Source: Amoebophrya sp. A120 (taxonomy: Eukaryota; Protista; Dinoflagellata). Taken from it: a DNA stretch of 6,886 bases. Position 1 is the stretch's first letter; each line of letters opens with the position of its first letter. The stretch is taken from contig CAJINV010000105.1 of assembly GCA_905178155.1 (NCBI GenBank), forward strand, positions 1 through 6,886, read 5' to 3'. Under the pieces are notes generated by a model that saw only the letters and a program-made list of their open reading frames with translations, was not told the DNA's origin and ran no database searches. Below, piece by piece: positions 1-6,886 of this stretch. The position numbers and the translations under genes are program-made.

Positions 1-169
1 CGCACGTGAAGACTGCGGGACATACCTTGGAGCCACCTGGTATGGCGTTCTCAAACGTTACATTCTCAACTGTTACATGAATTTGTCATGCAAAACAGCC
101 AAAACTTGTGGATTTGTCTAGCCGATTTCCCATCTTGACTATGGTGTGGGTACGTTTTTACTCAGGATA
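1..169. mobile_element. Introner-like element, family A, left end outside window
   Basis: 83-169 closely matches 3381-3467 (GATTTCCC.TCTTGACT.TGGTGTGGG.ACGTTTT...TCAGGATA). Confidence 0.85.
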
Positions 170-210
170 TCAGGGGCTCTTTCTCTAGCGTGTCGTAGAG
201 AAATTTCAGC
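170..210 (-). CDS. Short exon (LKFLYDTLEKEPL)
   Basis: 41 nt between introner termini; in frame with the upstream exon. Confidence 0.75.
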
Positions 211-3200
211 TATGGATTGTAAAAATATCTGGGTCTGGAAGATTCTGACACTTGTCATGCAGATTTTCCATGATCCATGTCATCTGGAGTGCAGGACCTA
301 GCATGACAGATTCTGCGGGATCCCTATCGCTATCATGCCTATCCTGCATGAGAAACTTCCTCTCAACTTAGTGGGCAACTTTTGGCATTCATGCAACACA
401 GATTTTTGCATCATCCAGAATTAGCATCACAAGCTCCAACCTTCCAGACCCAGACATTTTTACATTTGATATCAACATGTGCGGGTTCATGTGCCCATCC
501 TTGGATAGGGAGTGTGTGTATTTTTCCTCGATTTTCTGCGCGTTGGTTTTTGGCGGATCTTCTGCTTCCGTAGATTCGGCCGTGTCGATGTTGCACATAA
601 ACACGGCTTCGTATTCCCTGTTTGTCATATTTTCACAATAGGCGTGGGCCTGCGGGCCTAAATTCCGGTGGGTTGGTCGGTTGGTTGGTTGGTTTTGGAC
701 AGACGACATTTGACCCACCGAACCCGCTACATTGTGTTTTGTGTTTTTCTGAGATTCATCCACTATTACTGCCGCAGCTGCCTACCTACCCACCTACCAG
801 GCGTCTTTTCGATTCATTGCAATACCATGATCGCACCGGCCCACCTACCTACCTATGCGTGCCTTTCCACCCAGAGCCGGCTGCCTACTGGTCACGCCTA
901 CCGACCTACCCACCCACCTGGTGGGTAGGTGGGGCGAGGGAGCGCGCGCTGCTTATTGGCCACGCCTACCGACCTACCGGCCCACCAGCCTGGTGGATGG
1001 GTGGGGCGAGGGAGCGCGCGCTGCCTATTGGCCACGCCCACCGACCTACCCACCCACCAGCCTGGTGGGTGGGTGCGGCGAGCGTGCGCTGCCTATTGGC
1101 CACGCCCACCGACCTACCCACCCACCTCGCTGGTGGGTGGGCGGGGCGAGCGTGCGCTGTCCCTTGGCCACGCCTACCGACCTACCCACCCACGGGCCTA
1201 GTGGGCGGGTGGGGCGAGCGTGCGCTGCCTATTGACCACGCCTACCGACCTACCCACCCACCTCGCTGGTGGGTGGGTGGGGTGAGCGTGCGTTGCCTCT
1301 TGGCCACGCCTACCGACCTACCCGCCCACCTGCCTGGTGGGTGGGTGGAGCAAGCCTCCGCTGCCTATTGGCCACGCCTGCCGAGCGACCGGCCCACCCA
1401 CCAGGCAGGTGGGGGTCTGAGACGAGCGCGCGCCGCCTATTGGCCACGCCTACCGACCTTTCCACCCACCAGCCTGGTGGGCGGGTGGGGCGAGGGAGCG
1501 CGCGCTGCCTCTTGGCCACGCTTACCGACCTACCCACCCACCAGCCTGGTGGGTGGGTGCGGCGAGGGAGCGCGCGCTGCCTATTGGCCACGCCCACCGA
1601 CCTACCCACCCACCTCGCTGGTGGGTGGGTGGCACGAGCGTGCGCTGCCCCTTGGCCACGCCTACCGACCTACCCACCCACCAGCCTGGTGGGCGGGTGG
1701 GGCGATAGATATTTTTGACCCTTCTAAAAAGCCCCAACCGGCGCGAGGCTGGCTTCCTGATTAGGCTTTGCAGGTGTGTGGGCTTTGTTTGGGTTTCTTG
1801 ATCATTCAGCGCAGATTAATCGCCCGACCCAATATTTGTTAGCCAGCGGCCCGGATTTCTGCCTGGAGCCCCGAAATCATACAACCGATTCGGGAAAACA
1901 TGTTGAAGGCAGGCAAGAAGTGGAACTTTCATTCTTTGGCTGCCTTCAAGAGAAGCCGGGCGGGAGAGCAGCTGCATGCTCAGGGGCCCAATTTATTATC
2001 GAGGGGTTTGCAAGCAAGGGGCTCGCGCAGCCAAGGGGTTGCGCAAAAAGCCCCCGCCCGCCCGGCATGACCAAGCGGGGGCTGATCCAAATTTTGCGCG
2101 AGTTTGTCTCTATTTCCCAAGTGTGTTTTGCTTGGGTTGAGGAAGCGCAGGTCTTGGCTGGAGAAAAGTGCAGCACTGGAGCCCCGACCTCTTTCTATCT
2201 CGCGCAAATCCTCACGAGGCCCCCCGGAGCTCCGATTGCGTCGACGCAGCACAGATTTGTGTCTGCGGCGAGCTGCGCGCAACACTGATTTGCGCTGCGC
2301 GCAACACAGATTTGCGTCCACGCAGCACAGATTTGTGTCTCCGGCGAGCTGCGCGCAACACAGATTTGCGCGCAACACGCAGCACAGATTTGTGCGCAGC
2401 ACAGATTTGTGCTGCGCGCAGCGGAGATTAACTTGGTTCTGCGTTGTACATAACCGACCAACCCACCGGAGGAAGTTACGGACAACTGCCTGCAGCTGCA
2501 GGCCCATCCTGCGCCCGAACCCCGAAGCCGTGTTTCCATACATCGGAAATTCGCTCAAATGTCGTCTGTCCAAAACCAACCAACCAACCGACCAACCCAC
2601 CGGAATTTAGGCCCGCAGGCTCACGCCTACTCTATTTTCACATCTTTTTGTTTCACACATTGAGCATGAGCTTCAGGTGGACCCGGCCAACTCAAAAAGT
2701 TGATCTTGATTTAGACTTTGCAAAAAGCACCATCACGATACAGGAAGATGCTTGCCGTCTGTTACAACCGATGATAATTCAGGAGCCACACCTACAAGAA
2801 ACGTTATACGGTTTTCATAATATACCCTTGATCCCCTCCTTCGAGCCATTCTTTCCTCGCTACCTCCGCCTTTTCTTCCCTTTCCGCCGCGGGGACGCCC
2901 GCCAGTTTCGCCCATTTCTTCATGACAATCGCTTCCAAGTCAAACTCAGTGGTGTCGTTTCCGACCTGCAGATCTCCGTCGGCGAATATTTCTAACCGCC
3001 ATTTGTACGGCTCTGGCTTCTCAGCTGCTCCTTCCTCCTCTTCCGCTGGCTCCTCTCCATTCGCCTCAGAGGCGACTATTTCCGCATTGTTCACCGGCAC
3101 CTCCGTTCTCTCCACGCACCGGCTGCTGTCTAGTTCGATCTGCAGGATGTAGGTCGCGTTGCCCTGGAGCTCCAGGTGCGGGAAGGATATCCTGAGTAAA

Positions 3201-6200
3201 AACGTTCCCACCCCAGAGTTGTCGTGCAATTCTGCATGCCAAAAAAGTTTCTCATGCGGAGCCCTATGAGAAGCATTTCGTTTTGCGTGTTTTGGGATTT
3301 GTGATGCGAGGATCGGCATGCTATGCTAGATCTGTGATGATTCTGAGCGAGCTAAACAGGACCACACTACGAGGACAAACTTATCATGCCAAACAACCAA
3401 AGCTGTGTGATTTGTCTAGCAGATTTCCCGTCTTGACTCTGGTGTGGGGACGTTTTCAATCAGGATAAAAGAAACCGCGTCCTTGCCCTCCATCGTGCAC
3501 ATGGTTTCCAGACTGGACAGCCAATTTTTCCTCCCGCCGAATTCCTCCGGATCTACGTTAACATTCGATTCCAGCGCCGGCAATTCCTCTTCCTCCGTAA
3601 CTTCCTCCCCCGACTGCCATCTGTCCTTCATCGCCGGCCGAAACTCCTCCTTTGGCGGGTGCTGCAACACCAATTTCGCGATAAAAAAAACGTCGGGAAA
3701 GTTGCAGGTTACCCGCATGGACGCGGAGACCACCGCTGGCTCCTCTTCCGAAACCGGCTCGGCTGCCACCGTGATTCGTTCCCGGAGAATCAACGGATCG
3801 AAGGTTTTCAGGTCCGACAAAGCCACTTCGTACAACTTTCTGTTGGAAAACCCGATTTTTTTCGCGTCGTAACTCTCGCTGAAGGGTTCCAGCGCGATCG
3901 CGGGTGTTGGTTCGGTGAGTTGCTCAAACAAGTGCACGTAGTACACCGGTTCGATAACGGGTTTCGACATGTTTCCCTCCAACAAAAGCAAAAACGTGTC
4001 CTCCCCCTCCGGTAAGTCGAACTGAAACAAGGGCAGGAACGGCGTTTCAAACACGATTTCTGACCAAACCGGGAAAACAAGTTGCTCTCCGGAAACTGCT
4101 CTTCGCCGCACCAACAGCCGCAGCCGGAGGTGCTGGCGGCACTCCGGGTCGCCGGCGAAGTGCGTGTAGGCGGTCACGGTGCGTTTCGCCGTGTTATGCA
4201 TCACAAAAGCATCGCACTAGTACAAAACGCATGACAAATTTTTTCTAGAGGAAAAATGAAATTTGTCATGCAGAACAAGCTAAAAAAGCAGATCTGTCAT
4301 GAACGACCTGCATTTATACGAGTACGATACTTTTGCACAGGATACGTGTCGGGGAGGCGGGATTTAAATTCGCACTTCGCCCACAGGCTGTACCCGGCTG
4401 GGTAGGTGACCGGGGGGTCTTCGCAGTCCGGTGCTCTTCCGATCTTCAGAACCGGGATGTGTGCTCGTTGCTCCAGGTAGTCCGCGGGCTCGACGAATGT
4501 CGCCCTGGCTTCGTAGTTCATCAGCGTCGTAGTTTCGGCTCCTGATACAGAACTAGGCACGCTGCACTTTTTCAGCAACACCTGGTGTTTCGCTCCCGAT
4601 TTTGTCGGATCCTCGATCAGCAAGAAGCAGTGCTCATATCAAATGCAAGTCGTTCTGGGTCCGGAAAGTTGTGATGCAAATCTGTGAATGGTGGGCGCAC
4701 TGCGATATGCCGCCAAGCATGACAATTTTTTGAGCGGTTTTTTATGTGTTTCGTTTACTGCATGGCAAACTGCGTTTTTGCATGACAGGCAAGAGGGCCT
4801 TGTCCTGCTCATGCATCACAGATCTAAGAGTCATGCCAGACAAGCATGACAAACGAAACCTGCATTCTTGCAGACCCAGACATATTTGCGAAGCATAGCT
4901 CCGACCCGTTTGCGACCACCGGCACGTCGAAACACCCCTGCACCCTTGGCGCGTTCGGACCCGTCACGTGTGTGCAGGTGGCAGACAGCGCCAGCGGGTT
5001 GTAGTCGAAGTAGCAGAACGGGTCCGGCGCGTCCGGATCGCTCTCTGCTGCACCAGCACTCCCAGCCGCGGCCTTCTTCGCGTAACAAAGGTGATTTGCG
5101 AGCTTCTGGAAACCGGTCGTGAACGGGTTTGATATTTTTCCACCCGAGGACCCTGTGCTCGTAGTGTTCGGGTAGCTGTTGAACTTCCAGTTGTTCGCGC
5201 GGAAAAAGTAGCTCCCCGCATGTACTGATGGGTCCATCGGCTCCACCGCGAGCACGACTTGGCAGGTCGGAATGGCCGTGCTACTTGTCGACCCGCCCTG
5301 TTGTTCCTGTTGGGAAGTTGTTGTACCAGACCCCGCGGCTGCGTCTTTTTCTTTTTTTCCCGACGATTTCGACGACGCCTTGGTTGGCGCCGCCGTTTCC
5401 GCGGGGTCCGCCGGACTAGCTCCTTCGTCGGGTAGTCCTTCTTCCCCCTCCTCAGGCGTGCCGTCGGGCTGCGTGGCAGACCAGAGCAGCAGCGTGGAGT
5501 CGGTGATTTTTTCCGAGGATGAGGAAGTATCGGTGGGTCTCCTGTGTAAAGGCATCCCCACCCCAGAGTTATCATGCAGATCTGCAAGCACAAGAGCATT
5601 TGTAATGCGCATCCTCACAAGAGGCATTTCCCATTGTATTTTGGAACTTGTAATGCTGTAAACAGGATGAGGAGATGGATTTGTTATGCGGCTTCCCTTA
5701 CTAAACTGCAATACACTACAGCCTGCAACTTGTCATGCGTGGCTCCCAAAACCTCGAGAAATGTGTTGCAAAATCCCCATCTTGACTCTGGGGTGGGGAC
5801 GTTTTTACAAATGATAGTGGGCGAAGTTGTTGCACTCGCTGTTTGTCCTGGTCCACCTTTGCTCGGCCGGACGCGGACGGTGAGGAGCATGGGCTTTGTG
5901 GGCAGCATATCGCGAGGAAAAATAATCCCACCTCCCCTTACTGAAAAGATATCTTTTGTGATGCTGATTTGTACTCACAAATCGTTTCTGTCTTGCAAGA
6001 AGGCAATCCGAGAAGGCCCCCCGCATTGTGCCAGCGGTTTGTGATGCTGTTAGGCCTACAGCATGGACTTTTGTCATGCTGGGCGCCTATGTCACAAAAC
6101 CTCTCCAGTCAGGCTCGATATGGGCCTGCAGTCCTCTTCTACTGCAAGACGAGGCTGATTTATGTACGCAAATCCAGCATCAGAAATTTCGTTCTGATAT

Positions 6201-6824
6201 GGGAAGGGGGGTCTTTTCCTTTTGATACAGCATGACTTTCGAACTCTCCGCGTCTTCCACCGGGACCGAGTCGTGCTTATGCATTGCAAGAGACTCGTAC
6301 TAGTAAAATAACTTAAACTAGTAGAAATCGCTAGCGCATGACAAATTTCAATTTCTTCTGCATGATAAATCGAATTTGTAATGCGGATTTCCCTTAATGC
6401 GAACATTTGTAATGCATGACTGCAATCTTTAGTACAAGTACGATCACTCTTGCAATCCATAGTGCTCCACACAGGTGAATTTGTCCGCGGACTCGTAAAA
6501 GGAGAAGTGGGTGGCCAGGTCCACCACGTCCGTCCAGTTGATCCAGTATCAACTGCAAATGTGTGAGACTTGTAATGCTGTCTGCGGAGTCTAAAAATAT
6601 CTGTGCTGTATGAGCAGCAAGAGGAGTCAGCTCTTGGCACGTCGCGGAGAGGGCATTTGTCATGCGTAATTAGCATCAAGACGTTCTGAAAGAATCTGTG
6701 ACGCTAGCACCAGAATCACAAACCTGACGGGTCATGCAAAATGTGCATGACAAGCCCAAACTCTACTTCAAGGAGACCCAGACATATTTGCACTTCATAT
6801 CCAGTAGCCGCCGTCGATATTCCG
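170..6824 (-). CDS. ADGB: Multi-exon androglobin-like (calpain-family) gene, partial at both ends; 10 exons, about 806 codons in window
   Basis: Manual joining of 6800-6824, 6462-6546, 6228-6277, 5817-5907, 4898-5537, 4345-4636, 3468-4194, 2826-3187, 472-617 and 170-210, dropping one 5-nt repeat copy at each introner, gives 2419 nt of stop-free frame. DGGYWINWTD resembles the end of a calpain catalytic domain. LILRERITV..SMRVTCNFPDVF..MEGKDAVSFPHL..YILQIEL..PYKWRLEIF..DTTEFDLEAIVMKKW..EKAEVARKEWL resembles the androglobin C-terminal region. Family recognised from memory, not searched. Confidence 0.7.
211..471. mobile_element. Introner-like non-canonical intron, family B, 261 bp
   Basis: TATGGATTGTAAAAATATCTGGGTCTGGAAG ... 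CTTCCAGACCCAGACATTTTTACATTTGATA (31-bp imperfect IR). Direct repeat TCAGC/TCAAC. Confidence 0.9.
472..617 (-). CDS. Exon (EYEAVFMC...DGHMNPHML)
   Basis: Core of ORF 389..763. The 5' boundary is inferred from a CAG acceptor at 620-618 that keeps frame with a GT donor at 2825-2824. Confidence 0.7.
636..713 (+). repeat. Left TIR of 2-kb element, with (GGTT)n tract
   Basis: Reverse complement of 2555-2632. Confidence 0.95.
880..1704. repeat. Tandem array, 12 units of 68 or 72 bp, each with an internal hairpin
   Basis: Unit starts at 880, 948, 1020, 1088, 1156, 1224, 1292, 1360, 1432, 1504, 1576 and 1644. Consensus GCTGCCTATTGGCCACGCCTACCGACCTACCCACCCACCAGCCTGGTGGGTGGGTGGGGCGAG(GGAG)CGYGC. Confidence 0.95.
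2245..2420. repeat. Irregular array of 7 CACAGATTTG near-palindromic cores
   Basis: Cores at 2250, 2283 (CACTGATTTG), 2305, 2326, 2359, 2383 and 2400. Confidence 0.9.
2555..2632 (-). repeat. Right TIR of 2-kb element
   Basis: Reverse complement of 636-713. Confidence 0.95.
2826..3187 (-). CDS. Exon (SFPHLELQGNATY...ARKEWLEGGDQG)
   Basis: Core of ORF 2804..3319; androglobin C-terminal-like motifs. Confidence 0.9.
3188..3467. mobile_element. Introner-like non-canonical intron, family A, 280 bp
   Basis: TATCCTGAGTAAAAACGTTCCCACCCCAGAGT ... ACTCTGGTGTGGGGACGTTTTCAATCAGGATA. Direct repeat AAGGA/AAAGA; junction AVSF|PHL. Confidence 0.92.
3468..4194 (-). CDS. Exon (TAKRTVTAYTHF...TMEGKDAVSF)
   Basis: Core of ORF 3416..4204; androglobin-like segment. 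Confidence 0.9.
4195..4344. mobile_element. Introner-like non-canonical intron, family C, 150 bp
   Basis: TATGCATCACAAAAGCATCGCACTAGTA ... TACGAGTACGATACTTTTGCACAGGATA. Perfect direct repeat CGTGT; junction PDT|AKR. Confidence 0.9.
4345..4636 (-). CDS. Exon (EHCFLLIEDPTK...YPAGYSLWAKCEFKSRLPDT)
   Basis: Core of ORF 4297..4623; in-frame junctions. Confidence 0.9.
4637..4897. mobile_element. Introner-like non-canonical intron, family B, 261 bp
   Basis: TATCAAATGCAAGTCGTTCTGGGTC ... GACCCAGACATATTTGCGAAGCATA. Direct repeat GCTCA/GCTCC; junction GSE|HCF. Confidence 0.9.
4898..5537 (-). CDS. Exon (PTDTSSSSEK...FDVPVVANGSE)
   Basis: GC-rich core of ORF 4824..5711, whose ends are read-through into introners. 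Confidence 0.9.
5538..5816. mobile_element. Introner-like non-canonical intron, family A, 279 bp
   Basis: TCTCCTGTGTAAAGGCATCCCCACCCCAGAGT ... ACTCTGGGGTGGGGACGTTTTTACAAATGATA. Perfect direct repeat GTGGG; junction SPT|DTS. Confidence 0.9.
5817..5907 (-). CDS. Exon (LPTKPMLLTVRVRPSKGGPGQTASATTSPT)
   Basis: Part of ORF 5684..5908; in-frame junctions. Confidence 0.85.
5908..6227. mobile_element. Introner-like non-canonical intron, family D, 320 bp
   Basis: TATCGCGAGGAAAA ... TTTTCCTTTTGATA, with imperfect IR extending about 70 bp. Perfect direct repeat CAGCA; junction VML|PTK. Confidence 0.9.
6228..6277 (-). CDS. Short exon (HDSVPVEDAESSKVML)
   Basis: In frame between elements 5908-6227 and 6278-6461. 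Confidence 0.8.
6278..6461. mobile_element. Introner-like non-canonical intron, family C, 184 bp
   Basis: TATGCATTGCAAGAGACTCGTACTAGTA ... TACAAGTACGATCACTCTTGCAATCCATA. Perfect direct repeat GTGCT; junction VEH|DSV. Confidence 0.9.
6462..6546 (-). CDS. Exon (WINWTDVVDLATHFSFYESADKFTCVEH)
   Basis: GC-rich, stop-free and in frame at both junctions. Confidence 0.85.
6547..6799. mobile_element. Introner-like non-canonical intron, family B-like, 253 bp
   Basis: TATCAACTGCAAATGTGT ... GACCCAGACATATTTGCACTTCATA. Perfect direct repeat TCCAG; junction GYW|INW. Confidence 0.9.
6800..6824 (-). CDS. Microexon (RNIDGGYW)
   Basis: 25 nt between two introner termini. Joins in frame to the next exon to give the calpain-like DGGYWINWTD. 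Confidence 0.8.
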
Positions 6825-6886
6825 TATCCTATTTAAAAACGTCCTCACCCCATAGTTGTAATGCAAATCTGCATGCTGAAAATGTT
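6825..6886. mobile_element. Introner-like element, family A, right end outside window
   Basis: TATCCTATTTAAAAACGTCCTCACCCCATAGTTGTAATGCAAATCTGCATGC matches the left ends at 3188 and 5538. Confidence 0.85.

Follow-up and report, generated by a model that had tools for sequence, protein, structure and literature searches.

Introners of a probable calpain-family gene of Amoebophrya sp. A120 and a candidate splice code in their terminal inverted repeats

Described introners and the elements of this locus

The genome of Amoebophrya sp. A120 holds ~30,000 introners, a described class of elements, and finding them at one more locus is not news in itself. In the accessible text of Farhat et al. 2021 (PMC7789003), their inverted repeats consist of TAT, 7 nt, and at least three A, direct repeats of 3 to 5 nt lie at the junctions, mean length is ~240 nt, and no dinucleotides are fixed; the junction position is left "variable/unknown," and a hairpin is proposed. 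Gozashti et al. 2025 (PMC12130899), in the portion available, describe A120 families as DNA elements with terminal inverted repeats (TIRs), 150 to 320 nt long and tens per gene, and assign family 38 to Ginger, with a 5-bp target site duplication (TSD) and TA/TA termini; their splice-site tables follow annotation sliding within the repeat, and that portion gives no excision mechanism. IS3EU and GingerRoot elements have TA..TA (TAY..RTA) termini, TIRs of >30 bp, and a TSD of usually 6 bp (PMC10045372, PMC12730594). In Polarella glacialis and Aureococcus, bidirectional introners with TIRs serve as introns in either orientation with a phase bias, and either the element or its TSD supplies the GT/GC/GA and AG that they use (bioRxiv 10.1101/2020.10.14.339549). 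Euglenid nonconventional introns combine TIR-paired ends, TSD-like repeats, and non-canonical junctions with other terminal motifs, and circular products have been shown (PMC11282704, PMC6221363).

We analyzed a single stretch of A120 DNA, the window, of 6,886 nt. Eight complete elements with TIRs lie in it, at the positions given by a sequence-only reading of the window, all within a gene on the minus strand; for each we also give the flanking joint found in contigs of sequencing run X3. Family F1 (~260 nt) comprises E1 (211..471, joint 205>472), E4 (4637..4897, joint 4631>4898) in the same orientation as E1, and E8 (6547..6799, joint 6540>6799) in the opposite orientation and exactly skipped. 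The HMM scores behind these orientations were 144 on the minus strand vs 53 on the plus strand for E8, 206 plus and 95 minus for E1, and 155 plus and 36 minus for E4. Family F0 (~279 nt) includes E2 (3188..3467, joint 3182>3468) and E5 (5538..5816, joint 5532>5817), family F2 (~150 nt) E3 (4195..4344, joint 4189>4345) and E7 (6278..6461, joint 6272>6462), and family F3 (~321 nt) E6 (5908..6227, joint 5902>6228). The claim that each element has its own 5-bp direct repeat was correct to the letter for five of the eight (E3, E6, and E7 among them); the repeats are 4/5 alike in E1 (206-210 / 472-476), E2 (3183-3187 / 3468-3472), and E4. At the mismatch, X3 retains the transcript-upstream copy in E1, and the mismatch in E2 confines the 5' junction to 0 to 2 nt before TAT.

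TAT starts 15 of the 16 ends of the complete elements; the transcript 3' end of E5 is AGA, not ATA (TCT start on the plus strand), and E5 is skipped exactly nonetheless. Across the first 20 nt of the TIRs, 11 to 17 positions are complementary. A scan of the window for TAT/TCT...ATA/AGA with a direct repeat of at least 4/5 and a TIR returned the eight elements and one extra pair, compared with a mean of 0.34 and a maximum of 3 in 200 dinucleotide shuffles. Two truncated elements had also been proposed, and both window edges do carry element sequence, with one junction each inside the window. The left one (E0, 41..169, minus strand, X3 loose end at 169) is compound, however: ~78-169 (family-A sequence) is the 5' part, in transcript sense, of an intron of family F0, and position 41 marks the left end of a different TAT family. 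The right one (E9, 6825..6886, minus strand) also belongs to family F0; the window boundary truncates it to its 3' end in transcript sense, and the last X3 joint side is 26 nt and ends at 6824.

The elements fit the introners of Farhat et al. 2021, and the class is therefore known; together with the X3 joints, these traits support the earlier identification as precisely removed, Amoebophrya-type non-canonical introners. Consensus ends of families F0 to F4 bear an A run at positions 11 to 13, and the 3' part of the host gene lies within the A120 annotation. The Gozashti et al. families were set beside our F0 to F8 by description, not by sequence. Termini and TIRs resemble those of IS3EU/GingerRoot, but the duplication here is 5 bp: the frame is restored only by lengths of 5 mod 3, not 6. 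With ORF length as the guide to a cognate DDE integrase-like transposase, none was found: no ORF exceeded 159 codons in 11 long TIR-bounded candidates from 373 kb. The TIR pattern had no match in viral contigs. In prokaryote genomes it had four single-end matches, which we took as chance.

The host gene and removal of the elements

Joining the 10 exon segments in the window along the X3 joints (6800-6824, 6462-6541, 6228-6272, 5817-5902, 4898-5532, 4345-4631, 3468-4189, 2826-3182, 472-617, and 170-205, minus strand) yields a translation of 806 stop-free codons, open at both ends, which forms the middle part of a large gene (170..6824); where an exon ends inside a direct repeat, its edge may shift by a few bases. 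This frame had been proposed from removal of the elements; it is indeed stop-free, but it additionally needs the removal of a canonical GT-AG intron of 2,208 nt that had gone unmentioned (618..2825, minus strand, X3 joint 616>2825, CT..AC ends on the plus strand). Within that intron, and not forming its boundaries, lies a separate TIR element (639..2629, without assigned strand) with 75-nt arms (639-713 / 2555-2629), TA at both outer ends, and a 68-nt tandem array (880-1705); it had no copy among 144 loci. The canonical intron, one example only, also has a TGAC whose A lies at -8.

Residues 460-806 (347 aa) are 100% identical to P0017 / CAD7946418.1, annotated as Amoebophrya sp. A120, and from this match we take the host to be Amoebophrya A120. 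P0017 spans E2, E1, and E0, and places the other junction of the E0 intron and the next exon outside the window. The public model of the gene leaves out the first 459 codons of our frame. The gene has conserved homologs, among them the 1,584-aa P0012, which matches Peptidase_C2 (E 1.1e-05), and the product is likely a calpain-family protein. Pfam searches of seven exons gave nothing above threshold and only two weak matches (E 0.1-0.23), a search with the 240-aa exon gave no match, and P0012 had none in PDB. An androglobin-like identity of the host protein gained no support from Pfam.

All eight element joints are present in X3 contigs. One contig (record 2) lacks E1, E2, E3, and the GT-AG intron together, and another (record 4) carries the joints of E4 to E8; X3 is considered RNA by a guess of run type, which the absence of the canonical intron backs, and a contig of this run does not stand for a single molecule. 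The removal lengths read from sequence (266, 285, 155, 266, 284, 325, 189, and 258 nt) equal the exact joints in these contigs, and none of the registers that the joints allow gives GT-AG, GC-AG, or AT-AC, as had been claimed. Unlike U2-type spliceosomal introns, the eight elements thus do not have GT/GC-AG ends, and unlike in Polarella and Aureococcus no dinucleotide is recruited. Runs X3 to X6 contain 0.48 to 0.50 of the window's words, compared with 0.484 expected for exons only, and runs X1 and X2 contain 0.79 to 0.80, far above that expectation. Raw RNA runs X9 to X11 gave matches in 2 to 3 of 30 bins, all of them element ends and none exons. Overall, the probable mRNA lacks all eight elements with single-base precision, and excision from pre-mRNA is the likely route.

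Termini, repeats, and pairing in related copies

The families recur, with two to four copies each of F0, F1, and F2 inside the window and 389 further full copies in loci of another assembly, JACKZZ01; the statistics rest on 373 kb. Strands of the outside copies were assigned by a codon model, not RNA, which as a control gave the right best strand for seven of the eight window copies and exceeded its threshold for four. Excluded were 17 of 397 copies in which the repeats had >2 mismatches or the termini >1 change, 125 of 380 without confident strand, and four duplicates. TAT/ATA ends with an exact 5-bp repeat were present in 277/397 copies. Removal of the element plus 5 nt restored the coding frame at 255/380 copies, compared with 15 to 21/380 for frame-shifting lengths. 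Orientation was split 124:131 among the 255 stranded copies, and same-family pairs within one frame were opposite in 49 cases and alike in 59. Given these strand assignments, the elements appear to insert both ways, and oppositely oriented copies in the window are both skipped, which is new here. Repeat position 1 fell at codon position 3 in 130/247 copies. Such a phase bias follows flanking composition in Polarella and Aureococcus, whereas here composition predicts 0.37 to 0.38 and 0.53 was observed; symmetric and asymmetric base models, k-mers, and periodic GC did not account for it.

With copies of one element inserted either way round, every terminus can be compared with itself in the 5' and the 3' role. 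Terminal position 3 was altered in 13/255 transcript 5' ends and 0/255 3' ends (Fisher p 2e-4, re-tested on data overlapping those in which the asymmetry was first noticed), across four families and both orientations. Positions 1 and 2 were altered in no 5' ends and five 3' ends (p 0.06), and positions 4 to 14 showed no 5'/3' asymmetry. In those 13 copies the change on the 5' side disrupts the position-3 pair, so the A matters by identity rather than pairing. The bases preceding this invariant A are GG, GC, TC, or TG and provide no context for pairing with U2. Over arm positions 4 to 30 of the 255 copies, G-U and A-C mismatches numbered 165:155, which is no signature of stem selection, though a long redundant stem could mask selection on single pairs and the test is not decisive. 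Sense and antisense folding did not differ (130/255, p 0.34).

Mismatches between direct repeats were spread evenly over the five positions (15, 17, 10, 13, and 15), and with this we rejected an idea hinted at by window mismatches at positions 1 to 3, namely that the last two repeat bases must match. Direct-repeat identity looks dispensable from these comparisons. By codon position, mismatches affected third positions at 9.0%, first at 3.4%, and second at 4.1%. The upstream copy had the better codon in 12/13 mismatches at position 4 and in 9/15 at position 5, which leaves the register unresolved by position 5. GG at repeat positions 4 and 5 occurred 37 times vs 22.2 expected (mirror CC, 19 vs 14.1), an excess with p 0.002 that is not significant over 208 tests. 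No enrichment was found for G at +1 (85 vs 75.8), end AG (25 vs 20.6), or GT-AG in register -1 (7 vs 6.0). N-T starts dominate in A120 according to Table S4 of Farhat et al., as far as that source was available (PMC7789003), which is compatible with register -1; we largely discounted the table, since GC and GA starts, as produced by aligner sliding, also occur among the annotated A120 sites. Ab initio canonical introns had no fixed branch distance, in predictions that are noisy and unvalidated. Overall, the comparison of termini suggests that three nucleotides matter, rather than hairpin pairing or the direct repeat. Three observations go beyond the accessible text of Farhat et al. 2021: independence from orientation, a terminal constraint that depends on strand, and the missing G-U signature.

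Candidate mechanisms of excision

Our preferred reading, which we consider about evenly poised between right and wrong, is that a relaxed ordinary spliceosome reads the 5' UA and a branch-like A 7 to 8 nt before the 3' junction. Insertion, either way round and with a 5-bp duplication, would be the work of a trans-acting transposase of Ginger/IS3EU-like, integrase type. Since one end is the inverted repeat of the other, the transcribed insert always begins with UA and ends with A-U-A plus the duplicate, as the sequences show. The 5' cut would fall at UA or one base before it, within the range of 0 to -2 that the X3 joints allow; at -1, the intron start N-U-A would resemble canonical G-U-A with +1 relaxed. 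The invariant A would act as branch point, its distance setting the 3' junction with no AG, and this branch point and lariat assignment is a candidate drawn from the termini. One duplicate copy's worth would depart with the intron, as it does in X3 and P0017, and the protein would therefore be restored; the duplicate would be left over from insertion and carry no signal. The long hairpin may bring the ends together in U1's place, although no pairing selection was seen. In the accessible text of Farhat et al., A120 retains U2, U4, U5, U6, and 83/89 spliceosomal proteins, and U1 was not found (PMC7789003). Branch points 2 to 4 nt before AG, with no pyrimidine tract, are described in Yarrowia, Trichomonas, and Giardia (PMC2483917). 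Several results weigh against this reading: the proposed branch A is in no context for U2 pairing, neither G at +1 nor terminal AG nor GT-AG in register -1 is enriched, repeat position 5 leaves the register unsettled, and predicted canonical introns have no fixed branch distance; the guessed run type of X3 and the codon-model strands of the outside copies also count here.

The rival that survives best, although we regard it as doubtful, is spliceosome-independent, structure-guided RNA splicing, in which a dedicated endonuclease and ligase, of euglenid nonconventional-intron or tRNA-like type, would act on both junctions as presented by the terminal hairpin and the intron would leave as a circle or linear molecule. 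Orientation independence, the lack of a dinucleotide rule, and the missing U1 fit it, as does the long terminal stem of E2 (z -4.64); euglenid TIR introns exit as full-length circles (PMC11282704), and an endonuclease and ligase could equally read UA and one A. Against it stand the equal G-U and A-C mismatches, the lack of a sense/antisense folding difference, the position-3 pair broken from the 5' side, and the fold of E8, which is skipped and folds no better than shuffles (z -0.69). The terms "structure-guided" and "dedicated system" in the sequence-only reading are unsupported on these grounds, and the conserved terminal letters occupy places expected for spliceosomal signals.

That reading had offered IES-like DNA elimination as its other option, in which the elements are precisely excised from DNA at some life stage and an element-free gene is transcribed. 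Ciliate IESs are likewise remnants of transposons with TA boundaries, and one repeat copy goes with them on excision; the kind of run X3 was guessed. We consider this highly improbable: the X3 contig without E1 to E3 lacks the canonical intron as well, X1 and X2 hold most of the window's words, the end constraint follows the coding strand, and in the accessible text of Farhat et al. the calling of A120 introns compared RNA-seq with the genome (PMC7789003). Self-splicing or maturase-assisted, group II-like introns have a very slim chance: no Rfam family reached gathering score in the window, the elements are 150 to 320 nt long with nine unrelated interiors in both orientations, and no orientation-specific internal column survived correction in F0, F1, and F2. 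A fixed A 7 to 8 nt before the 3' junction does recall the group II branch site. A dead gene full of MITEs, the untranscribed pseudogene that had been named as a refuting case, is next to negligible in probability. Taking out an element with one duplicate does return whatever sequence preceded the insertion, whether or not it had a function, but the joined form occurs in X3 at contig depth 38 to 130, repeat mismatches concentrate at third codon positions, and homologs are conserved.

Returning to the relaxed spliceosome, we tentatively propose, at somewhat less than even confidence, that A120 has a U1-less spliceosome whose entire cis code derives from the transposon terminal inverted repeat: N-U-A plus one branch A, with a distance-set 3' junction and no AG, U2-pairing consensus, or selected hairpin. 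If so, any TAT...ATA element with a 5-bp duplication would be a scarless intron in either orientation, and the code, more reduced than any other described, would account for introns numbering in the tens of thousands. It would also bear on the minimal requirements of spliceosomal catalysis, on the annotation of such genomes, and on how transposons become harmless introns.

The window gene and its introns

We examined the eight complete transposon-like introns (E1 to E8) reported by the sequence-only reading at 211-471, 3188-3467, 4195-4344, 4637-4897, 5538-5816, 5908-6227, 6278-6461 and 6547-6799. These coordinates are right, and the inverted arms are complementary at 11 to 17 of the first 20 bases. 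On the minus strand, each element starts with TAT and ends with ATA, the sole deviation being the AGA end of E5. A scan for TAT/TCT...ATA/AGA ends that also carry terminal inverted repeats (TIRs) plus a direct repeat matching at ≥4/5 positions returned nine pairs in the window (E1 to E8 and one extra), compared to a mean of 0.34 in 200 shuffles. The 5-bp direct repeat claimed for every element is exact in five of eight, but matches at only 4/5 positions in E1, E2 and E4. As proposed, no allowed register of the eight elements yields GT-AG, GC-AG or AT-AC. The single 806-codon frame is real, but it also requires removal of a 2,208-nt canonical GT-AG intron (618-2825, minus strand), whose joint is present in X3, a run of assembled contigs that are probably RNA.

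An unrelated TIR element of approximately 2 kb (639-2629) lies inside the canonical intron. It has 75-nt near-perfect inverted arms with TA at either outer end, a tandem array of hairpin-like units (68 nt x 11.9) and a second array (17-76 nt), and no copy of it occurs among the 144 outside loci described below. At the 3' end of the canonical intron (618-630, minus strand) we observed TGAC, with the A 8 nt from the end and no pyrimidine tract; in this single case, the spacing equals that of the elements' invariant A. Near the left edge of the window, 41-79 holds the left terminus of another TAT family, which recurs at three outside loci (L071, L073 and L075), and it adjoins sequence of family F0, so the edge intron (41-169, with its other junction beyond the window) is compound. 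The next exon is not at 1-40.

Residues 460 to 806 of the frame are 100% identical to the public Amoebophrya sp. A120 protein CAD7946418.1, which spans E2, the canonical intron, E1 and the edge element. That gene model begins at residue 460; a second partial model has 108 aa, and record 4 of X3 extends ~1.9 kb upstream beyond the window. A 1,584-aa homolog has a calpain (Peptidase_C2) match. Farhat et al. (PMC7789003) give 29,850 A120 introner copies, with inverted repeats made up of TAT, seven variable positions and three or more A, and with direct repeats of 3-5 nt, and state that U1 snRNA was not found in A120. Gozashti et al. (PMC12130899) divide the A120 introners into 58 families, among them one classed as Ginger, with a 5-bp TSD and TA/TA termini. 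The element class is therefore already known, and this locus is a real, correctly read example of it. Our searches of the open-access literature turned up no paper on where Amoebophrya introners branch, how they are oriented or how their ends are constrained; part of the end pattern may be displayed in figures 3, 4 and S19-S25 of PMC7789003.

Probable removal in RNA

Among four runs compared, only X3 covered the exons. All eight joints in its contigs match the predicted removal lengths, and the canonical joint is present as well. One contig carries the E1, E2, E3 and canonical joints and another those of E4 to E8, these being contigs rather than single molecules. Of the words sampled from 2650-6886, runs X3 to X6 contain 0.48-0.50, where exons alone would give 0.484; X1 and X2 contain 0.80 and 0.79. 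Together, joints and word fractions are consistent with splicing at the RNA level and with elements that stay in the DNA. Where the repeat is imperfect (three elements), the joined sequence has the transcript-upstream letter (repeat positions 2, 3 and 1 of 5), which places the 5' junction 0-2 nt upstream of TAT and the 3' junction 3-5 nt downstream of ATA.

Three RNA runs from 2026 (X9 to X11) each placed 100-575 reads on just one diverged element end, flanked by different sequence (touching 80-170 and 389-473), and 0 reads on exons. In our reading, abundant RNAs from another strain or another locus retain these element ends.

Related copies, orientation and termini

A TIR pattern search found 144 loci from 30 of 64 parts scanned, every one on contigs of JACKZZ01, an assembly other than the window's; they merged into 132 stretches (373 kb), among which the window's exons have no match. 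With profiles we recovered 397 full copies, which fall into nine families; eight of the copies are the window's own. In 255 of 380 clean copies, taking out the element plus 5 nt left both flanks in a coding frame, compared to 15-21 for frame-shifting lengths. We called the strands of outside copies with a codon model whose seed was the window gene, not with RNA; on the window, the model gave the right strand for 7/8 elements, and 4/8 passed its threshold. A motif common to all families, TGT(A/C/G)ATGC, occurs in 251 of 255 copies, at 12.2 per kb compared to 0.11 in exons, and is likely a common transposase site. At seven loci (L008, L025, L072, L117, L128, L005 and L033), introner copies are broken by secondary insertions of 100-900 nt, of which some end in poly(T) or CAT repeats, and both TIRs and the 5-bp repeat are intact. 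Interior length seems free.

Orientation relative to the coding strand is random (124:131 among 255 called copies), and 49 of 108 same-family pairs in one open frame are opposed, a count independent of the strand call. Within the window, E8 lies opposite to E1 and E4, and X3 skips all three; the signals must therefore be symmetric. The same terminus acts as the 5' end in some copies and the 3' end in others. Position 3 of the terminus (TAT at the 5' end, ATA at the 3' end) is changed in 13 of 255 copies in the 5' role and 0 of 255 in the 3' role (p 2e-4, ~0.003 over 14 positions), an asymmetry first noticed on overlapping data and thus not independently replicated. These changes are spread over four families and both orientations, with none among the 121 copies lacking a called strand. 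Positions 1-2 show 0 changes in the 5' role and five in the 3' role (p 0.06). Positions 4-14 show no difference between roles, and this symmetry speaks against a mutation process biased by strand. The role dependence indicates a fixed UA at the element's start and a fixed first A in its terminal ATA.

Repeat mismatches are even across the five positions and depend on codon position (9.0% at third positions, 3.4% at first and 4.1% at second); the repeat thus acts like a footprint. Of its two copies, the upstream one has the better codon in 12 of 13 cases at position 4 and 9 of 15 at position 5, leaving register 0 or -1 (5' cut at, or one base before, UA). Insertion phase is biased (130, 59 and 58 of 247 called copies, top phase 53%) and the bias survives composition models; if the register is -1, it would correspond to the familiar excess of phase 0. 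In the same 247 JACKZZ01 copies, CC follows the repeat as the next two exon bases 30 times (15.1 expected, p 4e-4 before correction).

Candidate excision mechanisms

Removal is precise and independent of element orientation, and in related copies the termini are under a strand-dependent constraint. We slightly favor excision by a relaxed U2-type spliceosome, because N-U-A matches G-U-A, because a branch A 6-8 nt before the intron end with no pyrimidine tract has precedent (PMC2483917), and because A120 retains most of the spliceosome. Counting against this route, G at +1, terminal AG and GT-AG are not enriched in the elements, and the invariant terminal A has no branch consensus. Structure-guided excision by an endonuclease and ligase is possible but rather less probable: the ends of E2 fold well (z -4.64), but E8 does not (z -0.69), and in the arms we see nothing to suggest that RNA pairing is selected (G-U 165, A-C 155). 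Folding energy is equal on both strands. DNA elimination of the elements is very improbable, given the word fractions of X1 and X2 and the X3 contig that lacks E1 to E3 together with the canonical intron. For the relaxed spliceosome, we infer its involvement, the branch point and the exact register, as we do the identity of the transposase. The interest of the finding lies in a testable excision mechanism rather than in the locus itself.
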